Below, one piece after another: positions 5,728 through 27,809 of a stretch of DNA of 64,000 nt. Each line of letters opens with the position of its first letter. Within the stretch, counting starts at the first letter, position 1. The position numbers were made by a program, and so were the translations under genes. Origin of the DNA: Actinomycetota bacterium (lineage in GTDB: Bacteria > Actinomycetota > Acidimicrobiia > Acidimicrobiales > JAMCPL01); assembly GCA_023379675.1 (NCBI GenBank), contig JAMCPL010000014.1, forward strand, positions 72,185 to 136,184. Reading direction: 5' to 3'. Below the pieces are notes generated by a model. It was not told the DNA's origin. It did not search any database and saw only the letters and a program-made list of their open reading frames with translations.

Positions 5728-5852
5728 AGCCACCTCGCGCTCTCTTCGGCTCGCAGAATAGTTCTCTGAGCCATGTCCTCCACCTCTGGGCAGCCATTCA
5801 CAATCCAAGCCATCAAGCATCCGATCCCAGCTATCCGGCCACTCTCCAGCAG

Positions 5853-5921: not shown

Positions 5922-6040
5922 TAGCTCCGAGTATGTATTACCGGAAGTTTTTGGCAGGGTTTGTTTTCCCGTGGTATTGTTCACCTAGTATCGTAATAGC
6001 ACTCAGACGACGATCATTGAGTGATAGCATGGGCTAAGTA

Positions 6041-9092: not shown

Positions 9093-9152
9093 TTGCAACC
9101 TGTGACGAAATGATATACAGTGGTTTTTATTGAACGGTTAGTAGATTAAACT
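9093..9152 (+). promoter_or_regulatory. Promoter (-35 TTGCAA 9093-9098, 17 bp, -10 TACAGT 9116-9121) plus conserved box ATTGAACGGTTAGTAGATTAAACT (9129-9152)
   Basis: Copy B of the four-copy cassette. The box starts 7 nt after the -10. GGAGG at 9158-9162 and ATG at 9171 follow directly. Confidence 0.6.
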
Positions 9153-9170
9153 TGTTTGGAGGTAATTGTA

Positions 9171-10220: not shown

Positions 10221-10238
10221 TCGGGCCGGCAGCAACTG

Positions 10239-11141
10239 ATGGGAGCTTCCAAGGTGGTATCCATCTCTGATGCCGTCTCGAGCATAGTCGAAGACGGCTC
10301 TTTTGTGGTAGTCGGTGGCATGCACTTGCACAACAACCCGATGGCTCTGGTAAGGGAGATCATCCGCCAAGGTCGAAGGACAGGTAAGTTGCTGACCAGC
10401 CCCTGCGGTGCCATGAACGCAGACTTGCTGCTCGGAGCGGGGCTGGTCGACGAGCTGATCACCTCCTACGTCGGCTTCGAGCATCTCGGCTTGGCGCCCA
10501 ATTTCAGGCGCCTTGCCGAGCAGGGAAGTATCCGCATCCTCGAGTGCGACGAACCTTACATAGCCCATGGTCTCTATGCAGGAGCCGGCGGTCTGCCTTT
10601 CATCCCCTTGCCCAGGGGACTCGAGTACTCGGACATCCCCAAGGTGAACCCCGAAAGCTATACCTATACTGAGGATCCTTTCAGCGGTGAGCGCGTGCTT
10701 GTAGGGGCTCCCCTCTTGCCGGAGGTCGCTCTCCTGCATGCCCAGCTCTCGGATGCACAGGGGAATGCTGTCCTGCTGGGAGCTCACTTCCTGGACAGGC
10801 TGATAGCATTGGCGTCAAAGCATGTGATCCTCCAGGTGGAGCGTATCGTATCCACCGAGGAGATCAGCAGCCATCCGATGGGCACGACAATCCCTGCTTT
10901 CCTCGTTGACGCGGTGGTCGTAGCCACCGGAGGCTGCCACCCCACCTCCTCTCACGCTTTCTACACATACGACGAACAACATCTGCGCCAGTATCTCGAG
11001 ATGGCAAGAGATGAGCGTGGTACCGATGAGTACTTGACTCGTTATGTACGCCAGACTACAGAGGCACTGTACCAGCAGTCTATGGCCGATCGTATCGATA
11101 GCCTGCGCAATGAGGCCGTCCTGGAGCAAAGGGCACTATGA
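10239..11141 (+). CDS. CoA-transferase subunit A (glutaconate/3-oxoacid CoA-transferase family)
   Basis: It contains VVVGGMHLHNNPMALVREI and is followed by subunit B through an ATGA overlap. Confidence 0.75.
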   Translation: MGASKVVSISDAVSSIVEDGSFVVVGGMHLHNNPMALVREIIRQGRRTGKLLTSPCGAMNADLLLGAGLVDELITSYVGFEHLGLAPNFRRLAEQGSIRILECDEPYIAHGLYAGAGGLPFIPLPRGLEYSDIPKVNPESYTYTEDPFSGERVLVGAPLLPEVALLHAQLSDAQGNAVLLGAHFLDRLIALASKHVILQVERIVSTEEISSHPMGTTIPAFLVDAVVVATGGCHPTSSHAFYTYDEQHLRQYLEMARDERGTDEYLTRYVRQTTEALYQQSMADRIDSLRNEAVLEQRAL

Positions 11142-11917
11142 GCCTGGATCAACCAACGGATTGGAGTGCTTCAGAGCTGATGGCCACCGTGCTGGCCGGC
11201 CAGTTGCGTGACGGCGAAGTTGCCATAATGGGTACGGGCAGCGCTGTTCCGCAGGCTTCCTGCAGGCTGGCACAGCTGACACATGCTCCCAATTTCTCCT
11301 ACATAGCAGGCGGTACTTGCAGCGTCAATCCATACCAGCAGCCACTGGTCGCATCGTCTTGCGACTACCGGCTACTACGGGCAGAGACGGCGGTACCGCT
11401 TACCGATGTAGTCCTAATGGAGGGTCGCGGCGACGTGTTCGACATCTTCTTTGCCGGTGGCATCCAGATCGATGCCTACGGCAACTGCAATCTGGTGGCG
11501 GTAGGAAGCTGGAACCATCCTCACCCTCGGGGACCAGGCAGCGTAGGGCTTCCTTTCCTTTCCAGGGTGGGGAGAATACTCATTTACACCATGTCGCACA
11601 ACCGGCGCACCTTCGTCGAGAAGGTCGACTTCCGGAGCGGCCCTGGTTTCTTGGAGGGACCGGCGTCCTGGCGAGAAGCTGGACTCATGGGAGGGGGACC
11701 AGCCATGGTGGTCACCCCTCTGTGTACCATGACCTTCAACCCGGAAACCTTGCGGATGCAGATTGCCTCGCTCCACCCAGGCGTAGAACTCCAACAGGTG
11801 GTGGAAGCCACCGGTTTTGAGATCGAGATCGAACCACCCCTACCGTTCACACCCTCACCCTCTCCCGAACAGCTTGACATACTACGGGCAATGGATCCGA
11901 ATGGACTGCTCCGTTGA
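11138..11917 (+). CDS. CoA-transferase subunit B
   Basis: It contains AIMGTGSAVPQASCRLAQLTHAPN and has an ATGA overlap with subunit A. Confidence 0.75.
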   Translation: MSLDQPTDWSASELMATVLAGQLRDGEVAIMGTGSAVPQASCRLAQLTHAPNFSYIAGGTCSVNPYQQPLVASSCDYRLLRAETAVPLTDVVLMEGRGDVFDIFFAGGIQIDAYGNCNLVAVGSWNHPHPRGPGSVGLPFLSRVGRILIYTMSHNRRTFVEKVDFRSGPGFLEGPASWREAGLMGGGPAMVVTPLCTMTFNPETLRMQIASLHPGVELQQVVEATGFEIEIEPPLPFTPSPSPEQLDILRAMDPNGLLR

Positions 11918-12032
11918 CCGTATATCCGGCCGGCTCCTTTCTCCGCAAAGAAGCATCCCCATGCTGCAATACATGTCGGCATCCATCTGGCCATGACTCG
12001 CAATATAAGAATATATGGAGGTAGAAAGACTT

Positions 12033-12785
12033 ATGCGCTTCGAAGGCAAGACAGCTATCGTCACTGGTGGTGGCAGTGGCATCGGCAGGGCAGTTGCGCT
12101 GTTGCTCGCAGGCGAGGGTGCTGCCGTAGCAGTGGCGGATCTCGACGGAACCAGAGCATCTCAGGTGGCCGGCGAGATCGCATCCACTCCAGGTGAAGGA
12201 ATAGGCGTAGCCTGTGACGTCACATCCACCTCTGATGTCCGATCCATGATAATAAAGGTCTTGGATGCGTTCGGGCACCTGGACATCCTTGTTTCCAACG
12301 CAGGCTGGGACAAGGTCATGCCATTCGTTGACACCGACGAGGAACTCTGGGACAAGGTCATTGCGGTCAACTACCGCGGCCATCTCGCATGCGTGCATGC
12401 GGTTCTGCCTCACATGATCGAGCAAGAGCACGGCCGCATCGTGCTGGTGGCTTCAGACGCAGGAAGGGTCGGTTCCAGCGGGGAAACCGTCTATTCCGGG
12501 GCCAAAGGCGCCACGATCGCATTCTCCAAAGCCATTGCCAGAGAGGTGGCTCGCCACAGCATCAATGTGAACTGCGTGGCGCCGGGGCTCATCGACACTG
12601 CCATGCTTGCGGGAGTACGCGAGGGTAACGAACGGCTGATGGATGCGATCACGCGCTCGATCCCGTTTCGCCGGGTAGGTAAGCCGGAGGAAGTAGCCAG
12701 GGCCATCTGCTTCATGGCCTCTTCTGATGCCGATTACATCACTGGACAGACACTGAGCGTAGACGGTGGACTCACCATGTCCTGA
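12033..12785 (+). CDS. short-chain dehydrogenase/reductase (FabG/BadH-like)
   Basis: It contains MRFEGKTAIVTGGGSGIGRA and the catalytic motif YSGAKGA. The ATG at 12033 was preferred over 12015 because GGAGG lies at 12017-12021. Confidence 0.75.
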   Translation: MRFEGKTAIVTGGGSGIGRAVALLLAGEGAAVAVADLDGTRASQVAGEIASTPGEGIGVACDVTSTSDVRSMIIKVLDAFGHLDILVSNAGWDKVMPFVDTDEELWDKVIAVNYRGHLACVHAVLPHMIEQEHGRIVLVASDAGRVGSSGETVYSGAKGATIAFSKAIAREVARHSINVNCVAPGLIDTAMLAGVREGNERLMDAITRSIPFRRVGKPEEVARAICFMASSDADYITGQTLSVDGGLTMS

Positions 12786-14163: not shown

Positions 14164-14865
14164 TCAACCTGCCATTATCATGTCCACGCAGGCATCGGCG
14201 AATGCCTGAGGATCATCACGGTCGGGGTCGAACCACTTGTATATCCAACTGGTCATGCCAAGGATGGCTTGGGCGCCGTAACGAGCCCTCATGGGCGCCA
14301 GTACTCCATTGTCCACGGCAGTAGCAACTGCTTCTTGATATACACGCAGGTACTGCTTCTCCTTGGCCAGTATCTCACTGTCATAGTTTCGAGCCAGCCT
14401 CGGTCGCTGGTCGAAGAAGACGGTGAAAAAGCTGGGTTCCGAAGCGACCATGACCACCTGATGACGTATCAGCGCCGCTAAGCGCTCTCTGGGATCCTGG
14501 ATGGACAGGCACTTCTCGATGCTATCCAGCGCTGAGGTGATGGTCTTGTCGAATATCAGGTAAAGCAGTTCGGCCTTGGAGCGCACATAGTAGTACAGGC
14601 TCGCTTTCCTCAAGTTCAACTCCGAGGCCACATCGTCCAACGACCCGGCATCATAGCCTCTCTCCCTGAACACCTTTGCAGCCACCTCTACGATCTCCGC
14701 CAAACGGGCCGTATATTCCGCGCTGGGCCCACGGTTCCGCGGCCTTCCCGGACGCCGTGCACCCACCTGCGCTCCGGCAGCACCGATCATCGCCCCCATG
14801 CCTCTCCTGACACTTGGATCAAGACTTGTGGCACTATCCTCAAGATCCTCAAGGCTGTCTTTCAT
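14164..14865 (-). CDS. TetR-family transcriptional regulator
   Basis: The HTH region is AAKVFRERGYDAGSLDDVASELNLRKASLYYYVRSKAEL. It lies co-directionally between the bcr-like genes and the acyl-CoA dehydrogenase. Confidence 0.8.
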   Translation of the reverse strand: MKDSLEDLEDSATSLDPSVRRGMGAMIGAAGAQVGARRPGRPRNRGPSAEYTARLAEIVEVAAKVFRERGYDAGSLDDVASELNLRKASLYYYVRSKAELLYLIFDKTITSALDSIEKCLSIQDPRERLAALIRHQVVMVASEPSFFTVFFDQRPRLARNYDSEILAKEKQYLRVYQEAVATAVDNGVLAPMRARYGAQAILGMTSWIYKWFDPDRDDPQAFADACVDMIMAG

Positions 14866-14973: not shown

Positions 14974-15786
14974 CTATACCAGCGCATCTTCCTTGGCAAG
15001 CTTTCTGGCTCGTTGCCGACCAAGAACTGCGGCTCCAAGAGCAAGGACAAACTGGGGCATGTCTCCTGATGGCAGGTTCATCTCCGCCTTCAGCTTTTCC
15101 TTGAGCACCTGCGCCATGCTCTCGAAACGCAGTATCCCACCGACCAGAGTGAACTCGGGCTCCATCTGCACTCTTTTCATCAGCTGGACCGACTTGGAGA
15201 CCAGAGAGACGATTGCGCCATGCATGATGTCGGCAGGAGCCACCCCTTGGGAAAGATGGTTGATGACTTCCGCCTCGGCAAAGACGGCACACACTCCAGA
15301 GATGGGCACATCCTCCTTCGATGTCGCTGCTGCCGGCCCGATCTCCTCGGTCTCGAAACCCATGTAACGGGCCGTCTTCTCCAGGAAGGCCCCAGTGCCA
15401 GCGGCACACTTGTCATTCAGGCGGAACGACTTCACCCTACCGTGCTCATCGAGCCGGGTGACCTTCATCGTCTGCCCACCCACATCCAGGATGGTGTGGG
15501 TGTCAGGATACAAGAATCGGGCCCCCCAGGCCGCTGCGGTAAGGTCAGTGATATTGATACTTCGCCCTCCCACTTGGAAGCGGCCATAGCCCGTTGCCGC
15601 CACGTAGGACAGGTCCCCCCGGTCCAGCCCAGCTTGAACGAGCGCCTTTCCCAGAGCCTCTTCTCCCACCTTGTCCAGCTTGAACCCGGTTCGGATCATG
15701 GCCTTGCCTGCAATCGAGTCGTCATCGGATAGGATAACCGCTTTGGTATAAGTCGAGCCTACGTCTATTCCCGCTACGTAGCTCAT
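14974..15786 (-). CDS. BcrAD_BadFG-family ATPase subunit (benzoyl-CoA reductase D/BzdP-like)
   Basis: It contains [12 protein letters not shown] and [13 protein letters not shown]. It is one of two distinct adjacent ATPase subunits. Confidence 0.75.
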
Positions 15787-16607
15787 GCCGTAACCTTCAT
15801 CAGCCTTGATGGAGCCTGACGGCTCTTCACATGATCCATGGCGAACAATGCTGCCCCCAGCGCTCCCATAAAGTGCGATTCCTCGCTCACGTATATCGGA
15901 AAACCCAGAAGCTCCTCCAGTGCCTTCACCATTCCTATATTCCTGGCCACCCCACCAGTGAATGCCACATCCTGCTCGATCCCTACTCGCCGTAGGAGAC
16001 CCAGGGCCCTCCCCGCCACTGACTGGTGGACCCCGAAGAGGATGTCCTCAACCTTCTTGCCCTTACCCAGCCAGGAAAGGATCTCTGACTCAGCAAAGAC
16101 TGTACAGGTGGTGGAGATCTTCACGGGCCTCTCCGAGCGAAGCGAGGTAGGACCAAGCTCATCGAGTGGTATCTCGAGCGCAGTCGAAGCCGCTCCCAGG
16201 AACCTCCCTGTACCAGCAGCACACTTGTCGTTCATGCTGAAGTCGAGGATCTCTCCATTGGGGTTCACCTTGATCGCCTTGGTGTCCTGACCGCCCATGT
16301 CCAGGACAGTCCTCGTGGCAGGGAACATGTGCACGGCTCCCCTGCCGTGGCAGGAAATTTCCGTAGTTTGGGTATCACCAAATGTCACCTTGTAGCGTCC
16401 GTACCCGGTACCCACGATGAAGCCAACGGCCTCCTTCTCCTCATGAATGTCGCCATCCCGAAGAGCCACCTCGTAAGCATGCTCGGCCGCTATGGTGACA
16501 TTGGCACCGGTATCTATCAGAGCTCGGCCCACTATTCGCTGGTCCTCGTCGATGATGATGGCTTTTGTTTGAGTGGACCCGACATCCACTCCTGCTGCAT
16601 ATGACAT
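15783..16607 (-). CDS. BcrAD_BadFG-family ATPase subunit (benzoyl-CoA reductase A/BzdQ-like)
   Basis: It contains [20 protein letters not shown] and [13 protein letters not shown]. It overlaps the downstream ATPase gene by 4 nt. Confidence 0.75.
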
Positions 16608-16616
16608 TTATACCTC

Positions 16617-17945
16617 CTAACTGGCTCGTGCCGCTATCAGCTTGCGAGTGGCCAGCCCTTCGAAAAAGGCATCCACCCGGTTTTTCAACTGCGCTTCCGA
16701 GACCACACGGGAGTCCATGTGATCAGACTCGAGTAGCAGCGTACCTACGTCGGCATCTTTCATGACTGCCAGCCTGTTGTCGGCCAAGCCCGTCGAAACC
16801 GTTCGGCAGGATTTGATGGAGTGATACACCACACCGTCGATCCCGTAGGGCTCCACCATGTCCACCAGCATTTTGTCCGAATAGAACATGGAATCCATTG
16901 CATTTCTCACTGTGACCAGCACCCCCTCGGCCAAGCTCTCCAAAGGATTGTCAAGGTCGTACTCGAACCCCGTGTTCATGCCACCCGAAGCAAACCATAG
17001 ATAGCTGGAGCCTACGAACTCCCCGCCCCACTTACTGAACATCTCTCCAAAACGCCGGAATATCGGGTAACAGGGTACTCCTACGAATACCAGGCGGTAC
17101 TTCTCCTCATGAAGAGTCCCGATTCCGTTGGCGGCTTTGTACTCGAGCTCTTCCACCAGATCCTCGAAGTACTTGGCTCCCTCTTCCCGGCCTCTGAACC
17201 CGTTGGCTACGCCAAGATACACTGTCCCGTCAGTTACCCCGTTGTAGAGAGCAGGTACAGCTTTGTTGACTTCGACCACTCGCTTGAAGCCAACGCTCAT
17301 CCTGTTGGCGTAACCCATGTGATCGCGTAGCTTGTCAATATCGAACTTCTTCCCGGTAACACCCTCCAAGACACCGATCAGCTCTTTCACCTGCCCTTCC
17401 ACATAGAGGCGATCATTGTCGAAATCGGCATCCCCTTTCCAGGTCCGCCTGCCTTCTGTCCTGGACCCGGGCACATCCAAGGTGAAGATAGGGACGTGGT
17501 ACATCCTCTCCCATATCTCCGCCCACTTTATGTAGGTATTGCAGGCATTGGTGTAGACAGCTACGGCGGGCGGAGGTATGCGCCCCATCGGGTGGTCTCC
17601 GCCGCGCATCTGCAATCCCACATCCGCTTTCACGTAGCCGCATACGTCGGATGCATACCCATAATCCTCTGCATCGGCTATGTAGGACTCCGAAGCATGC
17701 CTTACCGCTGTCTGCAGGCCATTGATCTCCGGAAATACCGTATGCAAATCGAACGATCGAAGCAACTCGGCCAAGCTTCCCATCACAAACACGTAGGCAG
17801 CCTTCTCGCCCCGCTCCGGAGCGGTGGTCAGCTCCTTATACCATTCACGGAACAGCTGGTTGCCGTCCCTGTTGCCCCGTCCTACCAATGTTTCAGCCCT
17901 GCCATCAGAACTGGGCGTTACTCTTGTAATTTGTTCGCTGCTCAT
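16617..17945 (-). CDS. benzoyl-CoA reductase / 2-hydroxyacyl-CoA dehydratase family subunit (BcrB/BadE/BzdO-like)
   Basis: It contains FPEINGLQTAV and SDVCGYVKADVG. The start was trimmed to ATG 17945, with GGAGG 5 nt upstream. Confidence 0.75.
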   Translation of the reverse strand: MSSEQITRVTPSSDGRAETLVGRGNRDGNQLFREWYKELTTAPERGEKAAYVFVMGSLAELLRSFDLHTVFPEINGLQTAVRHASESYIADAEDYGYASDVCGYVKADVGLQMRGGDHPMGRIPPPAVAVYTNACNTYIKWAEIWERMYHVPIFTLDVPGSRTEGRRTWKGDADFDNDRLYVEGQVKELIGVLEGVTGKKFDIDKLRDHMGYANRMSVGFKRVVEVNKAVPALYNGVTDGTVYLGVANGFRGREEGAKYFEDLVEELEYKAANGIGTLHEEKYRLVFVGVPCYPIFRRFGEMFSKWGGEFVGSSYLWFASGGMNTGFEYDLDNPLESLAEGVLVTVRNAMDSMFYSDKMLVDMVEPYGIDGVVYHSIKSCRTVSTGLADNRLAVMKDADVGTLLLESDHMDSRVVSEAQLKNRVDAFFEGLATRKLIAARAS

Positions 17946-17975
17946 TGCAACCTCCATTTACCAATCTCTCTCCGC

Positions 17976-19142
17976 TCACACGAAGAGAATATTCTCTATG
18001 AATGTCTCCAGCTGGATCTGCAGGCTGTCGAAGCTGGTCATCGATTCTTCGAACTCGCTCACGAAGTACGGCACGCCCTCTTCGTCAAGGGCCTTTATAT
18101 ACGCCACCTGCTCGTCCAGCCCGGGCTCACACATCTTGGCCGCGGTGATGATTGCCGCACTCGCGCCGGAGTCCTTGATCCGGTCCAAGAGCATCTTTTC
18201 CTTCGGCTTTCGCAAATCATGCTGGACAGCGCTGTAGCTGGAGTGTTCCAGATAGGCATCGGCCAGGTTGCCGAGTGGGTCCCCCTCGGTCGAGACATCC
18301 TCAGTGATCCAGCGCGACCCAATCAAAAGATCATCATCCACTACATAAGAGAACTGGCCGATGGTGTGCAGCAGATCCAATGGCGGTTGTTCGCAGAAAC
18401 CTCCCTCCAGCACAAGGCGCATCCTGTCCTGAGGCTGGAGATTTCGCTTGCCCACGAGGTCCAGGGCATATCTCAGCAACTCGTTGTGCTCCTGCCTCGG
18501 CACCATACCGCCAACTGCCATCAGCACGTATGCCTCGTCCACCGCCAGCAGCCAAGGGGAGTCCCGCCTTATGGCATACATCTCTCTCAACAGCCGTCTG
18601 TTCTCGTTGAAAATGACGATTGCTGCGCGCAGATCGTCATCACTGATCCGATGACCTGCAACATCCTCGACATCCCTCTTCAGGCGATCATACTCGCCCC
18701 GCAGGTACGTGATCGCGTGAGCGGAGTTGGCATTCTGGGGCAGGTAAAGAATCTCGCACGGATAATCAAAGTTCCGTCCGTATACCGCAGCCAGGTTTCT
18801 TGCCGAGTCGCAGATGGGATGCGAAACAAACATGTCCAGCACGATCTTCCGGGTCAGGGCAAGTTCGAGGGAGGTCTTGACAATCGAGCAAAGATACCCA
18901 CCAAAGTGCGCCCCCGCCTCGCTTACCTCAAAGGATCCTCCCCTTACGGACAGAGGCAACATCCCTGCTGCCGCGACAATCTCATCTGGAAAATAGACCT
19001 GAAAACGCCCAACCACCTTGCCGCCGTTTTCACGCCAACGTTTCACCGTCGGATAGTCCACGTCTTCCACCAGATCACGGCAGTACTCGACAACACCTTC
19101 TATCGGCAGGTCCTGCCACCCTTCCAGCATGCGAACAACCAT
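17976..19142 (-). CDS. benzoyl-CoA reductase / 2-hydroxyacyl-CoA dehydratase family subunit (BcrC/BadD/BzdN-like)
   Basis: It contains GRFQVYFPDEIVAAAGMLPLSVRGG and HPICDSARNL. The start was trimmed to ATG 19142 (context gtGAGGttgctATG). The track start at 19298 lies in the leader. Confidence 0.7.
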   Translation of the reverse strand: MVVRMLEGWQDLPIEGVVEYCRDLVEDVDYPTVKRWRENGGKVVGRFQVYFPDEIVAAAGMLPLSVRGGSFEVSEAGAHFGGYLCSIVKTSLELALTRKIVLDMFVSHPICDSARNLAAVYGRNFDYPCEILYLPQNANSAHAITYLRGEYDRLKRDVEDVAGHRISDDDLRAAIVIFNENRRLLREMYAIRRDSPWLLAVDEAYVLMAVGGMVPRQEHNELLRYALDLVGKRNLQPQDRMRLVLEGGFCEQPPLDLLHTIGQFSYVVDDDLLIGSRWITEDVSTEGDPLGNLADAYLEHSSYSAVQHDLRKPKEKMLLDRIKDSGASAAIITAAKMCEPGLDEQVAYIKALDEEGVPYFVSEFEESMTSFDSLQIQLETFIENILFV

Positions 19143-19311
19143 AGCAACCTCACGCTCTTTTCCTTTATCTGGCTGGAGTTCTCCAAGCCAAGTCCTCCAC
19201 CTCATGCACGCCGACCACTGCTCGAGGATGTCGCCTGGACATCCGGTCCCTGGAGTCCCTGGCGCGGAGTCCCTGACACCATGTCGTACAATCACCACAC
19301 GTTTCCAGTGG

Positions 19312-19370
19312 AGTTCAATCTACCAACTGTTCAATAAAACTATTGTACGCCACTCGACTGCAAATTGCAA
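19312..19370 (-). promoter_or_regulatory. Promoter (-35 TTGCAA 19365-19370, 17 bp, -10 TACAAT 19342-19347) plus conserved box ATTGAACAGTTGGTAGATTGAACT (19312-19335)
   Basis: Copy C of the four-copy cassette. The box starts 6 nt after the -10. A leader of about 170 nt precedes the ATG at 19142. Confidence 0.6.
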
Positions 19371-19517
19371 CTGTTCTGATGTGCTTCATCAAACAATTTT
19401 GAAAGATATTGGTTCTACGTTATATCACGTGGACTTATAGATAAAAAGCTTGCCCGCGAGGCTTTCAGTATCGCACTCGCCTGAACTGCTGGTACCTGCG
19501 ATACGCTATACTCAAGG

Positions 19518-19555
19518 TTGAATTGCGGATTGCCGCATTTGGAATTTCAATTCAA
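19518..19555. promoter_or_regulatory. Nested inverted repeats upstream of boxC (candidate operator)
   Basis: TTGAATT (19518-19524) pairs with AATTCAA (19549-19555). Inside lie GCGGattgCCGC (19525-19536) and GAATTtcAATTC (19542-19553). The site is 40 nt upstream of the GTG at 19595. Confidence 0.4.
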
Positions 19556-19594
19556 GCAACGATTTTTCTGATCGACTGAACGAGGAGAACGGCA

Positions 19595-21259
19595 GTGATC
19601 ACTCGGCACATAGACTTCGACACCGATCCCGGGGCCTACCGGCACTGGAAGCTCATTATCGAGCCACCGATAGCCACCGTCGTCATGGCAGTCGATCCGG
19701 CAGGGGGGTTGCATGACGGCTACGAGCTGAAACTCAATTCCTACGATCTCGCAGTCGACATCGAGTTCTACGACCTGACACAACGACTTCGTTTCGAACA
19801 TCCCGAGGTGAAGGCCGTCGTGATGACCAGCGGCCTCGATAAGGTCTTCTGCGCGGGAGCCAATATCCAGATGCTCGCTGGTTCTTCCCACCACCACAAG
19901 GTCAATTTCTGCAAGTTCACCAACGAGACACGTAACGGGGTCGAAGATGCCACGCGGTATTCCGGGCAGGTCTGGATCGCTGCAGTCAATGGCGCCGCAG
20001 CAGGTGGCGGCTACGAGCTTGCGCTCGCTTGCGATGAGATCATCCTGATTGATGATCGTGTCTCAGCGGTCTCGTTTCCGGAGGTACCACTCCTCGGCGT
20101 ACTCCCGGGCACTGGTGGACTCACCCGAGTCGTCGAGAAGCGTCATGTGCGGCGAGACCGCGCCGATGTCCTGGCAACCAAGGCCGAAGGCATAAAGGGC
20201 CACCAGGCAGTCGAGTGGGGGCTCGTCGACGAAATCGCACTGCACAGCCGTTTCGATGAGGCCGTGCGGCAACGGGCATTGGCACGCGCCGAGCAATCGG
20301 ACCGGCCTGCAGAAGAGCATGGCATCATCCTCTCCTCTATAGAGCGCAGAGAAGATACCGGCACGCTCAGCTATCCCCATCTCGAGATCCGCCTAGAACA
20401 TCATATCGGTGCAGCCTTCTTCAAGATCAAGGCTCCAACCCCCGCTCAAACCCTTTCATCATTGGACGAGATGCTTTCAGCAGGTGCAGCGTTCTGGCCC
20501 CTAGCGCTGTGCAGGGAACTCGATGACGCGGTGCTCCGCCTGCGCTTCAACGAGCCGGAACTCGGCACCTGGGTCTTTGAAACCGAGGGTCAGGCTTCAA
20601 ACGTACTGGCAGTCGGCGAGCTACTGCGCGAGCACGCCGGCCACTGGCTCGCCAGGGAAATCCGCCTGTATTGGGCGCGGACACTCCGCCGCATCGAGCT
20701 TTCGGCGCGCACGCTCGTTACTCTCATCAAGCCCGGAAGCTGCTTTGCGGGCATCCTTGCCGAGCTGGTACTGGTCGCGGATCGCTCCCTGATGCTTGAG
20801 GGCGTTGTGGGCCATTCCACGCTGCCCGCGGCATCCATCCTGCTGGACGAGATGAACGATGGCTGGTTCGTGATGACCAACGGGTTGAGCCGGCTCGAGT
20901 GCCGCTATCTCGGGCAACCGGATGACCTGCAAGCCGTGCGGGACCGGCTCGGCAAGGAGTTGCCGGCAGCAGATGCCGCCGAGCTGGGGTTGGTTACTTT
21001 CACCCCTGACGAAATCGACTTTGATGAGGAGGTACGGGTGATGCTGGAAGAGCGGAACAGCTTCTCGCCCGATGCGGTAACCGGCATGGAGGCGAACCTC
21101 CGCTTTGCTGGGCCGGAGACGATGGAAACGAAAATCTTCGCACGTCTCACCGCCTGGCAGAACTGGATATTCCAACGCCCTAATGCGTCAGGGCCCGAAG
21201 GTGCACTACGCAGCTACGGCACCGGGTCTCGTCCCAATTACGACCGGGAGCGAGTGTAA
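19595..21259 (+). CDS. boxC: benzoyl-CoA-dihydrodiol lyase (2,3-epoxybenzoyl-CoA dihydrolase)
   Basis: 554 aa double-crotonase architecture. The N-terminus is IDFDTDPGAYRHWKLIIEPPIATVVM. GTG start with a GAGGAG SD. Confidence 0.85.
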   Translation: MITRHIDFDTDPGAYRHWKLIIEPPIATVVMAVDPAGGLHDGYELKLNSYDLAVDIEFYDLTQRLRFEHPEVKAVVMTSGLDKVFCAGANIQMLAGSSHHHKVNFCKFTNETRNGVEDATRYSGQVWIAAVNGAAAGGGYELALACDEIILIDDRVSAVSFPEVPLLGVLPGTGGLTRVVEKRHVRRDRADVLATKAEGIKGHQAVEWGLVDEIALHSRFDEAVRQRALARAEQSDRPAEEHGIILSSIERREDTGTLSYPHLEIRLEHHIGAAFFKIKAPTPAQTLSSLDEMLSAGAAFWPLALCRELDDAVLRLRFNEPELGTWVFETEGQASNVLAVGELLREHAGHWLAREIRLYWARTLRRIELSARTLVTLIKPGSCFAGILAELVLVADRSLMLEGVVGHSTLPAASILLDEMNDGWFVMTNGLSRLECRYLGQPDDLQAVRDRLGKELPAADAAELGLVTFTPDEIDFDEEVRVMLEERNSFSPDAVTGMEANLRFAGPETMETKIFARLTAWQNWIFQRPNASGPEGALRSYGTGSRPNYDRERV

Positions 21260-21264
21260 TCGTC

Positions 21265-22677
21265 GTGGCGACCGCGGACTACAACACGCTGATCCCCAAT
21301 AATGTCGATCTGTCGAGCGACCGCCGGTTGCAGCGAGCACTGGAATCCTGGCAGCCTCGCTTTATTGAGTGGTGGAAGATGCTGGGACCAGTAGCATTCC
21401 AAGATCACGATGTCTACTTGCGAACGGCCATCTCTGTCGCCCAAGATGGATGGGCCAACTTCGGTTACGTCAAGATGCCGGAATATCGATGGGGCATCTT
21501 CTTGGCTGATGCGGTCCCTGGGCGGAAGATCGCTTTTGGCGATCACATGGGCATGGATGCCTGGCAAGAGGTTCCGGGTGAGTATAGGGCCGACCTCCGC
21601 CGGTTGATCGTTGTGCAAGGGGACACCGAGCCAGCCTCAGTCGAGCAACAACGGAGGCTATGCCTGACAGCACCGAGCGTATACGACCTGAGAAACCTGT
21701 TCCAGGTGAACGTGGAGGAGGGACGTCACCTGTGGGCTATGGTGTATCTCCTGCACCGGTATTTCGGCCGGGATGGTCGTGAGGAGGCGGACGACCTGCT
21801 GCAGCGCCACTCCGGCGATCAGGACAATCCGCGCATCTTGGGCGCGTTCAACCAAGCGACGCCTGACTGGCTGTCGTTCTACTTCTTCACCTACTTCACC
21901 GACCGGGACGGCAAGTTCCAACTCGCGTCCCTCAAGGAGAGCGCTTTCGACCCGCTTTCACGGACCTGCGAGTTCATGTTGAAAGAAGAAGCACATCACA
22001 TGTTCGTCGGTGCAAGCGGGGTGGCACGGGTGCTGCAACGCACCGTCGACCTCATGAAAGAGCACGACACCAGTGACGTTGCACAATTCGGTGGAATCGA
22101 CCTCGCGACTATTCAAAGATACCTCAACTTCCACTTCAGCGTTTCCCTCGATCTCTTCGGAGCCGAAACCTCCACCAATGCCGCCAATTACTTCGCGGCA
22201 GGACTCAAGGGTCGCTTCCACGAAGAGCAACGCGACGATGATCACCAGATGAAGGGCGAGAGGCGAATGGTACCCGCATTCGAAAGTGCGGCCATCACCG
22301 AGCACGAGCATGCATCACTCACGGCACTCAACGAGATGCTCCGCGAGGACTATATCGCCGACTGTGCAAAGGGCGTGGAGCGCTGGAATAGGATCCTGGC
22401 CGGAGTAGGCGCTGAACTCCGCCTGCCCCACATCGGCTTCAACCGCCATGTCGGTGTCTTCGCGGGACAACCCATCACACCCGATGGGAACGTGATAAGC
22501 GAAGGAGGCTGGAAGTCGGGGATGGCCTCTGAGTGGATCCCGATTGACTCGGACAAGGAACACGTGCAGGCGCTCATGTCTGGTATCCGTGAACCAGGAA
22601 AGATGGCAGGCTGGATCGCACCACCCGCCACCGGCATCCACGCAAAGCCCATCGAATTCGAGTACGTCCGTACATAG
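21265..22677 (+). CDS. boxB: benzoyl-CoA 2,3-epoxidase (oxygenase) subunit B
   Basis: 470 aa. It contains IPNNVDLSSDRRLQRALESWQP and the di-iron type motif MLKEEAHHMFVG. GTG start 5 nt after boxC. Confidence 0.85.
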   Translation: MATADYNTLIPNNVDLSSDRRLQRALESWQPRFIEWWKMLGPVAFQDHDVYLRTAISVAQDGWANFGYVKMPEYRWGIFLADAVPGRKIAFGDHMGMDAWQEVPGEYRADLRRLIVVQGDTEPASVEQQRRLCLTAPSVYDLRNLFQVNVEEGRHLWAMVYLLHRYFGRDGREEADDLLQRHSGDQDNPRILGAFNQATPDWLSFYFFTYFTDRDGKFQLASLKESAFDPLSRTCEFMLKEEAHHMFVGASGVARVLQRTVDLMKEHDTSDVAQFGGIDLATIQRYLNFHFSVSLDLFGAETSTNAANYFAAGLKGRFHEEQRDDDHQMKGERRMVPAFESAAITEHEHASLTALNEMLREDYIADCAKGVERWNRILAGVGAELRLPHIGFNRHVGVFAGQPITPDGNVISEGGWKSGMASEWIPIDSDKEHVQALMSGIREPGKMAGWIAPPATGIHAKPIEFEYVRT

Positions 22678-22719: not shown

Positions 22720-22779
22720 TTGCAATTTACGATGAAGTGGTATATAATATGTTCAATTGAACGGTTGGTAGATTGAACT
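22720..22779 (+). promoter_or_regulatory. Promoter (-35 TTGCAA 22720-22725, 17 bp, -10 TATAAT 22743-22748) plus conserved box ATTGAACGGTTGGTAGATTGAACT (22756-22779)
   Basis: Copy D and the best-consensus copy. The box starts 7 nt after the -10. A leader of about 105 nt contains the hairpin GCGCCTGGttagCCAGGCGT (22791-22810). Confidence 0.65.
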
Positions 22780-23176: not shown

Positions 23177-24484
23177 GTGGACAACCTTGCGGGGTCCAAG
23201 CAATTGACCGTAGCTGAGGAGATCCTGGCAAGGGCGGCAGGCAGGGAAGAGTCGAGCGCCGGCGAGTACGTGGTGGCACGGGTCGATGCCATGATGATGC
23301 ACGACATCTTTGCTGCAGATGTCCTGTCTATGCTGGAACAGGCGGGTATCCAGCACCTGCATGATCCCAGCAAGGTAACGGTGGTGTTCGACCATATGAT
23401 CCCCCCACCGTCGGTTTCCGCCGCTTCCCACCAGGCAAAGGCACGGGAGCTGATCTCGCATTTTGGTATAGATGCTTTTTTCGAGATCGGGCGCGGGATA
23501 TGCCATCAGGTGATGATCGAGGAACATCGAGTAGCGCCTGGACAGCTGGTGGTGGCTACGGATTCGCACACAACGACATACGGAGCACAAGGTGTCGCTG
23601 CAACGGGTATCGGGAGTTCGGAGATGGCTTACACCCTTGCCACTGGACAGCTGTGGTTCAAGGTGCCCGAGAGCATTAGCGTGGTCCTGGAGGGACAGTT
23701 CTCGTATGGCGTAACGGCCAAGGATCTGGTCCTGTACTTGATGAAGGCAATAGGCTCGGCAGGAGCTCAGTACCGGTCAATCGAGTTCGGCGGCGAGGGT
23801 GTGGACCAGCTGAGCTTGGCCGATCGCATGACCATCTCCAACATGGGGGTGGAGATAGGCGCCAAATTCGCTGTCTTCCCCGCCGGCTCTGTCCAGACCA
23901 TCAGGGAAAATGCCGGCTATGTGGCAAGCCATACCGTATCGCTTCGATCCTTGACTCCTCAGGTTGCTGTTCCCCATCACGTCGAGAATGTCGTAGACGT
24001 GGATGAGGTGGCAGGAACCCCCTTGGACCAGGTGTTCATAGGGTCTTGTACAAATGGAAGGCTGGAAGACCTGCGGCAGGCCGCCAGCATCCTCGAGGGA
24101 AGGCATATAGCCAAGGGATTGCGGCTGATCGTATTCCCTGCATCCTCTCATGTAATGGAAGCGGCGGCACAGGAGGGAATCATAGAGATACTTAACGAAG
24201 CAGGGGCTTATGTCGGTGGTCCCGGCTGTGGGCCCTGCTTTGGCGGGCATCTCGGGCTTCTGGCTCCCGGTGAACGTTGCTTGGGTACGCACAACCGTAA
24301 CTTTCGTGGAAGGATGGGCTCTGCAGATGCCGAGATATACCTGGGGTCTCCCATGACCGCCGCCGCATCGGCATTGGCGGGTGCTATCAGTAACCCGTGC
24401 CAGGTGGACCACATGACATCAGGAAGAGAGCCCTTTGGTGTAGTCACTGCAGGAGATCCTCTTGGCGGGAGAGGCGAGGCATGA
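23177..24484 (+). CDS. aconitase-family dehydratase large subunit (LeuC/HacA-like)
   Basis: It contains VATDSHTTTYGA, GSCTNGRLEDL and GPGCGPCFG (cluster cysteines). Confidence 0.8.
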   Translation: MDNLAGSKQLTVAEEILARAAGREESSAGEYVVARVDAMMMHDIFAADVLSMLEQAGIQHLHDPSKVTVVFDHMIPPPSVSAASHQAKARELISHFGIDAFFEIGRGICHQVMIEEHRVAPGQLVVATDSHTTTYGAQGVAATGIGSSEMAYTLATGQLWFKVPESISVVLEGQFSYGVTAKDLVLYLMKAIGSAGAQYRSIEFGGEGVDQLSLADRMTISNMGVEIGAKFAVFPAGSVQTIRENAGYVASHTVSLRSLTPQVAVPHHVENVVDVDEVAGTPLDQVFIGSCTNGRLEDLRQAASILEGRHIAKGLRLIVFPASSHVMEAAAQEGIIEILNEAGAYVGGPGCGPCFGGHLGLLAPGERCLGTHNRNFRGRMGSADAEIYLGSPMTAAASALAGAISNPCQVDHMTSGREPFGVVTAGDPLGGRGEA

Positions 24485-24996
24485 TGGCTGGTCTGCCGGC
24501 TATCCAGGGTAGAGCATGGCTATTCGGCTCCGGCATCTCTACTGATATGCTTTCACCGGGTCAGTACGTACACCACCCCATGGAGGAACGCCTGAAGCAC
24601 GTTCTGGAGTCGGCTCGTCCGGAGTTTGCCGGCGAAGTGAAGCCCGGCGACATCGTGGTGGCGGGAGCCAACTTCGGCTGCGGTTCCTCCAGGGAGTCAG
24701 CGCCCCAGCACTTGAAGGACTTGGGAGTTGCAGCTGTCGTAGCCGACTCGCTGGCGAGGATTTTCTCACGGAATGCCATTGCCATCGGTTTGGTGGCGAT
24801 TGCCTGTCCTTCGATATCCGAGGTCGTCAAGGATGGCGACACAGTTGAAATCGATGTGGTATCTGGCATAGTCAGTGTCGCAGAGCGGGGCATCGTGCTG
24901 GAAGGCGATCGGATTCCGGAGCCTATGCTCGATGTTCTGCGTCATGGCGGCATAGAGCCATTGCTCGCCTCCATAGCTGCGGAGCAGAACCGATGA
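24481..24996 (+). CDS. aconitase-family dehydratase small subunit (LeuD/HacB-like)
   Basis: It contains GANFGCGSSRESAPQHL. The start was trimmed to ATG 24481, which forms an ATGA overlap with the large subunit. Confidence 0.8.
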   Translation: MMAGLPAIQGRAWLFGSGISTDMLSPGQYVHHPMEERLKHVLESARPEFAGEVKPGDIVVAGANFGCGSSRESAPQHLKDLGVAAVVADSLARIFSRNAIAIGLVAIACPSISEVVKDGDTVEIDVVSGIVSVAERGIVLEGDRIPEPMLDVLRHGGIEPLLASIAAEQNR

Positions 24997-25469
24997 GTGA
25001 TTCTGTCATTGCGAACTTTGACGTGAACGGCCGTAGCCGGGAAGTACTGGTGAAACCCTACCACACGCTCCTCGAAATACTGAGAGAGGATCTTGGCCTT
25101 ACCGGTACCAAGCACGGCTGCGAGTTGGGCGAGTGCGGTGCTTGTACTGTGCTCGTTGACGGGTTGCCACAGCTCAGTTGCCTGCTCCTGCCACACCAGG
25201 TGGAAGGGAAAGAGATCACTACTATAGAGGGACTGGCCGAGGGCGATGAGCTGCACCCTCTCCAAGAGGCTTTTGTCGAGGCAGGGGCCGTTCAGTGTGG
25301 CTACTGCACCCCGAGCATGCTTCTTACTGCAAAAGCGCTTCTGGAGGGAGACCCCTCCCCTAGCCGTCAAGAAATAGCCGAGGCGCTCTCGGGCAATCTT
25401 TGCCGGTGCACGGGTTACGAGGCGATCACCCGGGCGGTCGAGTTGGCCGCAACGAGAATGGACACTTGA
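24993..25469 (+). CDS. [2Fe-2S] small subunit of a xanthine-dehydrogenase-family molybdoenzyme (HcrC/CoxS-like)
   Basis: It contains GCELGECGACTV and GYCTPSM...NLCRCTGY. ATGA overlap with the upstream gene. Confidence 0.85.
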   Translation: MSDSVIANFDVNGRSREVLVKPYHTLLEILREDLGLTGTKHGCELGECGACTVLVDGLPQLSCLLLPHQVEGKEITTIEGLAEGDELHPLQEAFVEAGAVQCGYCTPSMLLTAKALLEGDPSPSRQEIAEALSGNLCRCTGYEAITRAVELAATRMDT

Positions 25470-25472: not shown

Positions 25473-27809
25473 ATGCGCGTGGTAGGAAAGCCCCTGGCAA
25501 AGGTCGATGCTCGAGCCAAGGTCACTGGAAGCACGCTTTACGCTGATGATCTCATCTTCTCTGATACTTTGTTCTGCAAGCTCTTGCGTAGCCCTCACCC
25601 GTACGCACGGATCAAGCACATGGACCTGAACGCCGCCAAGGCAGTTGAAGGCGTGGTGGCGGTCATCACCGGAAACGATCTGCCCGTCAAGTACGGGATA
25701 CTTCCGATCAGTCAGGACGAGCACGCGCTGGAGAGCGAAAAAGTGCGTTACGTAGGTGACCCGGTGGCAGCTGTAGCTGCTTTCGATGAAGAAACGGCAG
25801 CTCTGGCAGCTGAGAAGATCCGTGTCGAATATGAAGTGCTGGATCCGGTCACCAGTATAGAGGAAGCATTGTCCGAGCCGACCGATGAGCCGATACATGA
25901 CTATGGTGGGCCGGCGAATATCCATAAGATGGCGGCGCTCTCCTTTGGCGACCTGGAGGCCGGATTTGCCGAGGCTGATCACATCCGTGAGGACGTGTTC
26001 TTCTACGGGGGAAATACCCACCTCCCCATGGAACAACACTCTGCCATCGCCACCTACGTAAACGGCAAACTCACTTTATGGTCTTCCACCCAGACTCCGC
26101 ACTATGTACATCGAACGATTTCCAAAGTACTGGATCTGCCCATGCAGGCAATACGGGTAGTAGCCACACCTCATGGTGGTGGTTTTGGAGGGAAGACTGA
26201 CCCATTCTCCCACGAGTTGGCCGTATGCAAGCTGGCCATGGTCACCGGTAAGCCGGTCAAGTGCACTTTGACTCGTGAAGAGGTCTTCTACGCTCACAGG
26301 GGGCGCCATCCGGTCCTCATGTGGGTTCGCACGGGAATGAAGAGCAATGGCAGGATCACTGCCATGCACTTCAAGACCGCCCTGGATGGCGGAGCTTACG
26401 GCTCTTACGGGGTAGCCACCATGTTCTATACCGGAGCCCTTCAGACCACCACTTATGACATCCCCGCCTATCGTTTCGAGGGAGCGCGGGTCTTCACCAA
26501 CAAGGCTCCCTGTGGCCCGAAACGCGGGCACGGCACTCCCCAACCTCGTTTCGCCCTCGAGTTGCACCTCGACAAAATGGCCGAGGACCTGGGGCTCGAT
26601 CCGGTGGAAGTACGGCGCCGGAACTACGTGTCACCCAATACCACTACTGTGAACTGGCTCCGTATCACCTCCTGCGGGCTGGAGGAGATCACTGATCAGG
26701 TACTTCAAGCCTCCTCGTACGTGAACCGCCAGAGAGCGGTAGGTCATGGCATGGGCTTCGCCGTCGCCAGCTACCTGTGCGGCGCCGGACTTCCCATCTA
26801 CTGGAACAAACTTCCTCACAGTGAATGTCTTATCAAGCTCGACAGAGGAGGAGTAACCGTCTATTGCGGAGCGACCGACATCGGTCAAGGCTCTGACACG
26901 GTCATTGCCACCCTGGTTGCCGAGGAACTCGGACTCTGGCCATCAGATATTCGCCTGGTGACGGGCGATACTGGATTTGCTCCCGTCGATCTGGGCTCTT
27001 ACTCTTCAAGGGTTACCTTCATGGCAGGCAATGCCGCGCTGGACGCTGCCAGGAAGCTCCGGAATCTGCTCGCGGAGGTGGCCGCGGAGTCAATGGGGTG
27101 TTTGCCTGGGGAGATAGTGACAGGCGATGGCAAGTTTGGCACGCTCAGCTTCGAGGAAACCACCCAGCTGGCTCAGGAACGTTTTGGCGCCATCTCCACC
27201 GTCGGCAGCTACCGTCCCCCAGATCTGGCCGGCCCTTACAAGGGTTCGGGTGTCGGTCCCAGCCCTGCTTACAGCTACTCCGCCGCGGTGGTTGACATCG
27301 ACGTCGATCCTGAAACGGGAATAATCAAGGTGAACAAGGTCTGGCTGGCTCATGACATAGGCCGTTCCATCAACCCTGTTTCAGTAAGAGGGCAGGTGGA
27401 GGGGGGGGTCTACATGGGCTTGGGCGAAGCGCTCATGGAAGAGCAAGCGTATAGGAAAGCCATGCCCAAGCAGCCTTCCATGCTTGACTACAAGTCGCTC
27501 ACCTCTGTCGATATGCCCGAGGTAGAGACCATCCTGGTGGAAACCGATGACCCGGAGGGACCATATGGCGCCAAAGAAGTGGGGCAAGGTCCCCTCTTAC
27601 CAGTGGTTCCGGCGGTGGTCTCGGCGGTACACGACGCCCTGGGTGTATGGATCGATCAAGTACCAGTGACTCCGGACAAAATTATGAAGGCGCTGGATGC
27701 CAAGGCCAAGGGCCAGGCTCCGAGATTTGGCCCCAAGTCATTTCCCGACATCGCCTATCCTCAATACGTGAAGGTGGATACCCCCCATGTTGCGACTCAA
27801 GCCATTTAG
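25473..27809 (+). CDS. molybdopterin-binding large subunit (HcrA/XdhA/CoxL-like)
   Basis: 778 aa. It contains GKPLAKVDARAKVTGSTLYADD, GGGFGGK and GAKEVGQGPL. Confidence 0.85.
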   Translation: MRVVGKPLAKVDARAKVTGSTLYADDLIFSDTLFCKLLRSPHPYARIKHMDLNAAKAVEGVVAVITGNDLPVKYGILPISQDEHALESEKVRYVGDPVAAVAAFDEETAALAAEKIRVEYEVLDPVTSIEEALSEPTDEPIHDYGGPANIHKMAALSFGDLEAGFAEADHIREDVFFYGGNTHLPMEQHSAIATYVNGKLTLWSSTQTPHYVHRTISKVLDLPMQAIRVVATPHGGGFGGKTDPFSHELAVCKLAMVTGKPVKCTLTREEVFYAHRGRHPVLMWVRTGMKSNGRITAMHFKTALDGGAYGSYGVATMFYTGALQTTTYDIPAYRFEGARVFTNKAPCGPKRGHGTPQPRFALELHLDKMAEDLGLDPVEVRRRNYVSPNTTTVNWLRITSCGLEEITDQVLQASSYVNRQRAVGHGMGFAVASYLCGAGLPIYWNKLPHSECLIKLDRGGVTVYCGATDIGQGSDTVIATLVAEELGLWPSDIRLVTGDTGFAPVDLGSYSSRVTFMAGNAALDAARKLRNLLAEVAAESMGCLPGEIVTGDGKFGTLSFEETTQLAQERFGAISTVGSYRPPDLAGPYKGSGVGPSPAYSYSAAVVDIDVDPETGIIKVNKVWLAHDIGRSINPVSVRGQVEGGVYMGLGEALMEEQAYRKAMPKQPSMLDYKSLTSVDMPEVETILVETDDPEGPYGAKEVGQGPLLPVVPAVVSAVHDALGVWIDQVPVTPDKIMKALDAKAKGQAPRFGPKSFPDIAYPQYVKVDTPHVATQAI

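Follow-up and report, generated by a model that had tools for sequence, protein, structure and literature searches.

How does a single bacterial locus come to hold both a reductive and an epoxide route for benzoyl-CoA, and are the two placed under one switch? The question is raised by the 64-kb stretch of DNA analysed here (hereafter 'the window', meaning the whole stretch), in which four genes of a putative aryl-CoA reductase (N, O, Q and P; jointly NOQP) lie back to back with boxC and boxB. We consider it probable that NOQP encodes an intact class I aryl-CoA reductase of the 3-methylbenzoyl-CoA reductase (MBR) type, and that it represents the core of an anaerobic-type benzoyl-CoA island. The six genes had been pointed out in an earlier reading of the bare sequence (the original prediction), and all of them were recovered at the same positions by the open reading frame (ORF) map and by the Pfam and NCBIfam profiles (Table 1). 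The attribution of the contig to Actinobacteria likewise held, as N is 99% identical to its counterpart in a metagenome-assembled genome (MAG) recorded as 'MAG: Actinomycetes bacterium isolate TL1-4.bin29' (the same locus, listed here as L007 and representing the window's own species), the next relatives of N (88-89% identical) come from MAGs named Acidimicrobiales or Actinobacteria, and a LAL-type regulator is present; of the wording 'high-GC monoderm', the actinobacterial part stood, and the G+C content of about 58% is not very high. The window maps to assembly GCA_023486005.1.

The reductase genes form a contiguous unit (gene order N-O-Q-P; one pair of neighbours overlaps by 4 nt, the others stand 9 and 30 nt apart) that encodes two HGD-D subunits and two distinct BcrAD_BadFG ATPases in one operon, the combination by which MBR-type class I reductases are recognised. 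In searches of all PDB sequences (by phmmer for N), each subunit was found closest to its matching MBR subunit and clearly above any dehydratase or BZD-type protein (300-524 versus at most 232 bits): N scored 524 bits to MbdN of PDB 9g87 (HadC 128, BzdN 95), O 507.6 bits to MbdO (HadB 116, BzdO 82), Q 413 bits to MbdQ of PDB 9gai (HadI activator 232) and P 300 bits to MbdP (MbdQ 183). The corresponding identities are 57% for N to MbdN and 53% for O to MbdO, as against 25% for N to both HadC and BzdN. The reference enzyme is the structurally solved 3-methylbenzoyl-CoA reductase (PDB entries 9g87, 9gai, 9gal and 9gba); a literature search found no paper describing the 9g87/9gai structures. In a neighbour-joining tree of N, 81 related sequences (including that of L007) and MbdN constitute one clade, distant from HadC and BzdN. 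The MBR assignment rests on this PDB search and tree, with NCBIfam profile scores standing as a proxy for BcrBC, BadDE and MbrBC. The four-subunit class I signature claimed in the original prediction was thus sharpened to one-to-one homology with MbdN, MbdO, MbdQ and MbdP, and the clustering with dehydratases that would have spoken against it was not seen in this tree. The Pfam HGD-D matches were scored on mechanically called ORFs with longer 5' ends (16617-17957 and 17976-19298); we consider the shorter starts at 17945 (O) and 19142 (N) to be right, because the homologues measure 442 and 388 amino acids and the operon's conserved promoter (-10 at 19342-19347) falls within the longer 19298 ORF of N.

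The iron-sulfur ligands expected of such an enzyme (three cysteines in O, cysteines in N and two in each ATPase) were all encountered in alignments of 68-83 family members per subunit. In O, C102, C135 and C380 never vary, and their aligned counterparts in BzdO are the [4Fe-4S] ligands C95, C128 and C380; Glu73, within an FPE motif, is invariant as well and may be equated (by positional offset, not by alignment) with the catalytic Glu65 of BzdO. The residue aligned with His131 of BzdO is Tyr138 in the window and Phe in MbdO. Among the six conserved cysteines of N, C85, C111, C250 and C338 reach 100%, C21 96% and C129 93%, while C127 and C166 of P and C129 and C168 of Q are invariant, as expected for a bridging cluster. 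Around Cys135 (O residues 134-138, window about 17532-17546), N-A-C-N-T-Y is found in 99% of 74 environmental sequences. In the mechanism that we propose, P and Q would pair as an ATPase heterodimer bridged by a [4Fe-4S] cluster. Reduced ferredoxin would supply this heterodimer with electrons, and hydrolysis of ATP would drive their transfer to the N/O dimer; the latter would reduce the aromatic ring of benzoyl-CoA (or of a close analogue) to a cyclic dienoyl-CoA.

The distribution of this enzyme type was scanned in one genome per GTDB species, which yielded loci encoding N relatives in at least 580 species-representative genomes; the phylum and box-linkage figures refer to the best 80 of these at least 580 loci. 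They belong mostly to Actinomycetota, Chloroflexota, Gemmatimonadota and Acidobacteriota (with single Binatia and Planctomycetaceae loci), the groups named among them being Acidimicrobiales, Acidimicrobiaceae and, for Chloroflexota, Anaerolineae, Ardenticatenaceae and Caldilineaceae. After the best locus (99%), the next 79 have an N that is 63-73% identical. Phylum-level groups are largely coherent in the tree, in which L007 falls within an Actinomycetota subgroup together with two close relatives, L006 and L001. Judged by its sequences, the MBR enzyme type is far from rare outside Proteobacteria, and the window is a member of a known and very widespread group. The original prediction had held that characterised class I enzymes are proteobacterial, which is so, with the addition of one archaeal case cited in PMC5736913. 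Within the passages retrieved from the two papers, single-cell genomes of Chloroflexi are reported to contain class I benzoyl-CoA reductase (BCR) genes (PMC5736913), and Acidimicrobiia MAGs of the order UBA5794 to contain both bcrBC and boxBC, a horizontal acquisition being suggested for the box genes (PMC12008989). These MAG and single-cell annotations agree with the window in phyla and, at annotation level, in gene content; the same passages hold no MBR assignment, physical linkage or shared promoter element, all of which are described here for the window. Actinobacteria and Chloroflexi are not mentioned in PMC10803450. What is new here is that the locus is assigned to the MBR type, how large the clade is and over which phyla it extends, that bcr and box genes are physically linked in this lineage, and that the promoter cassette occurs four times. 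In public records, many N homologues are named '2-hydroxyacyl-CoA dehydratase', and JGI uses 'benzoyl-CoA reductase subunit C'; for this clade the first of these names is, to judge from the comparisons made here, probably an annotation error that recurs systematically.

The promoter in front of N is composed of TTGCAA (19365-19370), a 17-nt spacer and TACAAT (19342-19347), followed by a 22-nt element, TTGAACAGTTGGTAGATTGAAC. Allowing up to 3 mismatches, the 22-mer occurs in 4 copies in the 64-kb window and in none of 100 shuffles; every copy comes after a TTGCAA-N17-TAnnnT promoter and before an operon of the island (cassettes 1-4 in Table 1). No copy precedes boxC. The claim that the reductase and box sides carry different cis-elements therefore stood, the 22-nt element being common to the reductase and three other operons, and the reductive modules look like one regulon with boxCB outside it. 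The block of cassette 1 is unchanged in L007, L006 and L001, while the flanking spacer has diverged. As L006 and L001 keep the promoter and element without a box neighbour, we regard the promoter/element of the reductase as autonomous and ancestral, and not as part of a shared switch. By analogy, the candidate repressor of the four promoters is probably the TetR-family protein of the reductase operon, with an aryl-CoA as inducer: in the mbd cluster, four promoters are repressed by MbdR, a protein of the TetR family, until 3-methylbenzoyl-CoA relieves the repression (PMC4424350). Such a repressor would hold the four cassette operons off until its aryl-CoA inducer appears. The TetR gene is retained beside NOQP in L001, L006, L007, L045, L056 and L075. 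With four promoters that carry the same 22-nt element, and a single TetR gene close by, the window provides a regulatory system that is small and amenable to testing.

On the other side of the 452-bp spacer (19143-19594), both box genes score above their equivalog cut-offs and qualify as BoxB and BoxC of the Box pathway, so the proposed divergence of the reductase operon from a genuine boxCB pair across about 450 bp was upheld. The homologues closest to boxB (73-79%) carry the name BoxB in records of Acidimicrobiia or Ilumatobacteraceae MAGs. A boxCB pair no more than 10 kb away from NOQP was found in one of the best 80 loci, namely L007, the window's own species. In L006 (89%, the nearest other relative) the order is N-O-Q-P-TetR-acyl-CoA dehydrogenase-ferredoxin-aconitase-4-hydroxybenzoyl-CoA reductase (HCR) with no box genes, which suggests that the window's layout is a rearrangement of an L006-like order with boxCB placed in between; the ferredoxin gene 3' of boxB is served by a promoter of its own, and in L006 it occurs without box genes. 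A further locus, found from BoxB homologues (L087, GCA_027410185.1), reads enoyl-CoA hydratase (ECH)-N-O-Q-P-small ORF-hemerythrin-PaaX(-)-boxC-boxB-benzoate-CoA ligase (BCL), with the reductase and boxCB co-directional, and in four other related box clusters the reductase is not nearby. The linkage thus recurs but is not a conserved architecture, the layouts of L007 and L087 being different and the other loci unlinked. We read boxCB, which stands between cassettes 1 and 2 but lacks the element, as a module under its own control that a rearrangement has brought next to the reductase in this lineage. No boxA flanks boxCB in the window or in L087-L091 (the rest of the window's genome was not searched), and no boxR stands next to boxCB in the window or in the five related actinobacterial box clusters. 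The box clusters of L087-L091 read boxC-boxB-BCL-hydrolase, often with a PaaX-family regulator; a PaaX gene was looked for in the window and not found. As a separate observation, the motif ACATGTAGTAT lies upstream of ECH-NOQP in L087 (about 940-990) and upstream of boxC in L088 (about 4000-4040) and L089; this hints that one type of CoA-ester-responsive regulator serves both routes in these lineages, all three of which encode a PaaX-family regulator.

Several observations weigh against the readings given above, some of them bearing on the enzyme and others on the regulon. All four subunits miss the NCBIfam equivalog cut-offs (248/421, 219/487, 209/578 and 127/313 bits, score/cut-off), and neither Thauera-type (TIGR02259-02263) nor BZD-type (TIGR03190-03192) equivalog status is reached; the best matches of the catalytic subunits are Thauera-type models (TIGR02263 with 248 and TIGR02260 with 219 bits) at about half of the cut-offs. 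The NCBIfam library contains no MBR-type model, and MbdN and MbdO (sequences rebuilt from printed alignments) show the same sub-cut-off pattern with 230 and 221 bits; as the characterised proteins miss likewise, we take the sub-threshold scores for an MBR-type signature and not for a different function. Many database records take the products for a 2-hydroxyacyl-CoA dehydratase and its activator(s). Such an identity agrees with the names in those records and with the Pfam HGD-D and TIGR00241 activase domain matches; it is, however, hardly credible in view of the low identity of N to HadC, the distance between the 116-128 bits to HadB/HadC and the 507-524 bits to MbdO/N, the two ATPase genes that each pair with a different Mbd subunit (a dehydratase would have two subunits, one homodimeric activator and its nearest relatives in Had/Hgd) and the aromatic-CoA enzymes in the neighbourhood. 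We therefore rejected this identity on sequence, subunit count and gene context. A genuine reductase acting on a substituted or different aryl-CoA (methyl-, halo- or hydroxy-benzoyl-CoA) in place of benzoyl-CoA is a more serious contender, which we still judge unlikely. The closest characterised enzyme is named 3-methylbenzoyl-CoA reductase, and MbdO reads N-Y-C-N-T-F around the active-site Cys135, unlike the N-A-C-N-T-Y of the clade, so that the substrate range may differ (the flanking motif being a possible determinant of it). The downstream enzymes of the window, moreover, are BadH/BadI-like variants and not canonical Dch/Had/Oah: the ring hydrolase is 32% identical to true Oah (192 bits, cut-off 464), and no canonical Dch or Had was found in the window. 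Benzoyl-CoA is favoured, on the other hand, by the benzoate-CoA-ligase-family enzyme of the island (scoring above cut-off), by the 4-hydroxybenzoyl-CoA-reductase-like enzyme (the product of which, in the characterised Thauera pathway, is benzoyl-CoA), by the presence in the same island of boxCB, which acts on benzoyl-CoA, and by the linkage to true Oah in Acidobacteriota and Gemmatimonadota relatives.

With regard to regulation, the original prediction envisaged the 452-bp spacer as a dedicated oxygen-dependent switch, selecting ring reduction in the absence of O2 and epoxidation in its presence. Two divergent units do have this spacer in common and carry different cis-elements; a palindrome found in the window and L007 alone, TGATG-N5-CATCA (19377-19391), immediately precedes the -35 of the reductase, and a second one, TTGAATTGCGG...CCGCA...AATTCAA, occupies the boxC leader (19518-19555) downstream of a TATACT hexamer (19507-19512). 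In Azoarcus, furthermore, an oxygen-dependent activator, AcpR, is required for the mbd and bzd genes (PMC4424350). We nevertheless regard such a switch as improbable, since boxCB lies within 10 kb of the reductase only in the window's own species among the best 80 loci, L087 has a different, co-directional layout with a PaaX gene in between, the promoter and element of the reductase are the same in relatives without box genes, the TGATG-N5-CATCA palindrome is absent from the other three cassettes, and the locus encodes no oxygen sensor, its sole regulator being the TetR-family protein. A shared FNR-type site was not found at the locus. The consensus sequences are TTGAT-N4-ATCAA for FNR and TGTGA-N6-TCACA for actinobacterial CRP; an FNR/CRP site upstream of the reductase promoter was considered and rejected, the spacing of TGATG-N5-CATCA fitting neither and the palindrome not being common to the other cassettes. 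Scans of the spacer gave no terminator, no sigma-70-like promoter for boxC (solely the minus-strand reductase promoter was returned), only short and weak repeats and, for the region 19050-19700, no Rfam family at E up to 1. The regulon itself meets a rival in which the four cassette copies are remnants of recent duplication and not a functional common operator. A duplication of about 370 nt (window 5590-5960, minus strand; 76% identical to 19020-19400) comprises promoter, element, leader and the first ~30 codons of N, and this non-functional N' fragment (ATG 5727-5725) reads into the start codon of the IPMS-like (isopropylmalate/homocitrate-synthase-like) gene; from its sequence, 5590-5960 looks like promoter capture by duplication. 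At least one copy of the element (copy 4) hence arose together with part of the N coding region, and shared ancestry could account for part of the similarity of the copies. The element, in addition, is not palindromic, and a non-palindromic operator is unusual for TetR; lying within the transcribed leader, it could act at the RNA level. Against remnants speaks that, in the stretch from promoter to leader, the element and hexamers are nearly invariant while the flanks diverge, both between paralogous copies and between genomes with 88-89% identical proteins, and that copy 3 has nothing else in common with the others. Remnants alone thus appear to us a rather doubtful explanation, and we retain the reading of a common regulatory element in front of the reductive operons.

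The genes surrounding the reductase are listed in Table 1, to which an amidohydrolase gene of the island is to be added. The Oah-like gene probably begins with ATG 9171, which has GGAGG 5' of it, rather than with the first TTG at 9156; the last position of the 22-nt element is 9151. The acyl-CoA dehydrogenase has acryloyl-CoA reductase and cyclohexane-1-carbonyl-CoA dehydrogenase as its best NCBIfam matches, both below cut-off, and the FdxA-type ferredoxin is likely the low-potential electron donor, to judge from its sequence. It is in the window, L007 and L006 alone that the aconitase-family pair separates the ferredoxin gene from the HCR-like genes. The HCR-like enzyme has the three subunits of HcrABC: its alpha subunit scores 572 bits to 1rm6_A (Thauera 4-hydroxybenzoyl-CoA reductase) versus 276 for the next match, and all four cysteines of the HcrB loop in the FAD subunit (beta) align with 1rm6_B, a loop which we take to be the [4Fe-4S] insertion characteristic of 4-hydroxybenzoyl-CoA reductase; the NCBIfam equivalog cut-off is missed (788 vs 995). 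Gene calling based on G+C at third codon positions was unreliable at 58% G+C, choosing some wrong-strand ORFs; the ORFs 9138-10787 and 1151-2044, without family matches, were discarded as such.

Table 1. Positions of the genes and promoter cassettes discussed, in window coordinates (IPMS, isopropylmalate synthase; SDR, short-chain dehydrogenase/reductase; Fdx, ferredoxin)
Feature	Position	Strand	Evidence or remark
IorB-like (POR gamma domain) with C-terminal 2x[4Fe-4S] ferredoxin fusion	1211 to about 2230-2350	-	
IorA	2227-4236	-	
Isopropylmalate/homocitrate-synthase-like (IPMS-like)	4233-5561	-	first gene of IOR operon
Cassette 4, before IPMS-like-IorA-IorB	element 5854-5875	-	
Benzoate-CoA ligase family protein	6177-7760	+	TIGR02262 537.3 bits, cut-off 375.25
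Cassette 3, before Oah-like-CoA-transferase-BadH-like	9093-9151, element 9130-9151	+	
Oah/BadI-like ring hydrolase (354-aa variant)	ATG 9171 to 10220	+	
CoA-transferase A/B	10239-11917	+	
BadH-like SDR	12015-12785	+	
Acyl-CoA dehydrogenase, 391 aa	12923-14098	-	Pfam ACAD domains; co-transcribed with TetR
TetR-family regulator	14164-14865	-	Pfam TetR_N, TetR_C_24
P subunit (delta, MbdP-like ATPase, 270 aa)	14974-15786	-	BcrAD_BadFG, Pfam E 4e-51
Q subunit (alpha, MbdQ-like ATPase, 274 aa)	15783-16607	-	BcrAD_BadFG, Pfam E 1e-62
O subunit (beta, MbdO-like, 442 aa; predicted substrate-binding/active-site subunit)	16617-17945	-	HGD-D, Pfam E 6e-61
N subunit (gamma, MbdN-like, 388 aa; Fe-S electron-transfer subunit of catalytic dimer)	17976-19142	-	HGD-D, Pfam E 5e-63
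Cassette 1, before N-O-Q-P	19311-19370, element 19313-19334	-	promoter scan
boxC, 2,3-epoxybenzoyl-CoA dihydrolase	19595-21259	+	TIGR03222 820.8 bits, cut-off 712.3
boxB, benzoyl-CoA 2,3-epoxidase oxygenase subunit	21265-22677	+	TIGR03225 771 bits, cut-off 499.1
Cassette 2, before Fdx-aconitase-HCR, between boxB and ferredoxin	22720-22778, element 22757-22778	+	TTGCAA-N17-TATAAT
FdxA-type ferredoxin, 95 aa	22886-23173	+	NF045480 FdxA_Actino 101.6 bits, below cut-off 125
Aconitase-family large and small subunits	23177-24996	+	NF001614 503 bits, TIGR02087 157 bits
4-hydroxybenzoyl-CoA-reductase-like molybdenum enzyme (HCR-like)	gamma 24993-25469, alpha 25473-27809, beta 27787-28767	+	
LAL-type regulator	56586-59441		AAA_16+GerE

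The lower-pathway context of the window is composed of the Oah/BadI-like variant, the BadH-like SDR, ferredoxin and IOR, and fuller Dch/Had/Oah sets are found in many relatives. All ORFs of 82 non-redundant loci were clustered and the cluster representatives annotated, which revealed as neighbours an Oah-type ring hydrolase in 46 of the 82 loci, a Dch-like hydratase in 36 (representative TIGR03189 245 bits, cut-off 292.5), a BadH-like SDR likewise in 36 (TIGR03206 261 bits, cut-off 431.2), a Had-like Zn-dehydrogenase in 29 (TIGR03201 250 bits, cut-off 338.65) and a PaaX-family regulator in 18 (TIGR02277 249 bits, cut-off 264.55); almost all of these frequent neighbours are adjacent to NOQP and co-oriented with it. 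The 46 Oah-type hydrolases comprise 19 of the true-Oah type (the representative, from L084, reaching 543 bits to TIGR03200, above cut-off), the other 27 being of the 354-aa variant seen in the window; orthologues of the latter (56-78% identity) lie within 10 kb of NOQP in these 27 loci. L001 (88%) has a three-subunit 2-oxoacid:ferredoxin oxidoreductase upstream, and an aryl-CoA-type ligase and hemerythrin beside the operon. Judged by these annotations, the gene context in relatives is that expected for a dearomatising reductase. Two further observations concern the region 3' of P. A hemerythrin gene directly follows P in two separate lineages (L001-L004, 14251-14667; L087, 6735-7145) and not in the window; its product might protect, or signal for, the O2-sensitive reductase. 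An ORF of about 107 amino acids with a C-terminal CGDC...C motif is found just after P, on the same strand, in 29 of the 82 loci (e.g. L014, 14309-14632); it has no NCBIfam match and is absent from the window.

Taken together, these observations allow a joint reading, which we put forward as tentative and judge less likely than not. The uncharacterised MBR clade with the NACNTY motif (at least 580 species genomes) would be a major non-proteobacterial ring-reducing system of soil and sediment; a four-promoter regulon would wire the pathway in the window, and a BoxA-less epoxidase pair would stand inside the island but outside that regulon, one benzoyl-CoA pool being dearomatised reductively or by epoxidation depending on conditions, with an island ferredoxin that might replace BoxA. 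The finding overturns nothing known; it places the locus in a large, well-conserved and unstudied MBR branch, in phyla that dominate soils, aquifers and sediments. Should the enzymes be active, ATP-dependent anaerobic ring reduction would be far more widely distributed than cultured models suggest, and the annotation '2-hydroxyacyl-CoA dehydratase' would be misleading. The window is, moreover, a natural case of physically linked reductive and epoxide routes for benzoyl-CoA.

Among known systems, facultatively anaerobic Betaproteobacteria are reported to possess both a class I BCR and the box genes in the same genome, where BzdR and BoxR cross-regulate them (PMC6449761, PMC10803450). The boxABC/BoxR systems of Azoarcus/Aromatoleum, which coexist with a class I BCR in this way, share boxB and boxC equivalogs with the window; their clusters have boxA and BoxR, whereas the boxCB of the window is without adjacent boxA or boxR and is embedded in a reductive island. 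Class I enzymes are divided into the BCR, MBR and BZD types, of which BCR and MBR form permanent heterotetramers (PMC11971306). The BZD type (BzdNOPQ, PDB 8s02) belongs to the same superfamily and has in common with the window the three-Cys [4Fe-4S] site in O and the conserved Glu, but is about 25% identical (in agreement with the 24-25% given for BzdNO vs MBR in PMC11971306), has His131 of BzdO at the position of Tyr138, and differs from the cysteine pattern of the window's N at three positions of the BzdN [8Fe-9S] ligands (PMC11971306). The Thauera-type BCR (BcrCBAD/BadDEFG) is of the same enzyme class and has the same gamma-beta-alpha-delta gene order, whereas little of the N-terminal region of the BcrA model (432 residues) is represented in the alpha subunit of the window (of its two matched stretches, the second and longer covers 232-432). 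The closest system is MBR itself, MbdONQP (PDB 9g87/9gai; the MBR of Thauera chlorobenzoica 3CB-1 and the mbd cluster of Azoarcus sp. CIB), which is alike in its four one-to-one subunits, in their sizes (both ATPases of ~270 aa) and in all Cys ligands, and has, as here, a TetR-family regulator gene and several promoters with a common element (PMC4424350). It differs in its betaproteobacterial hosts, as opposed to Actinomycetota, and in its NYCNTF motif in MbdO (NACNTY in the window); the window, for its part, is set apart by the gene order N-O-Q-P, by BadH/BadI-like downstream enzymes, by a 22-nt element unrelated to the MbdR operator ATAC-N10-GTAT, and by boxCB next door.

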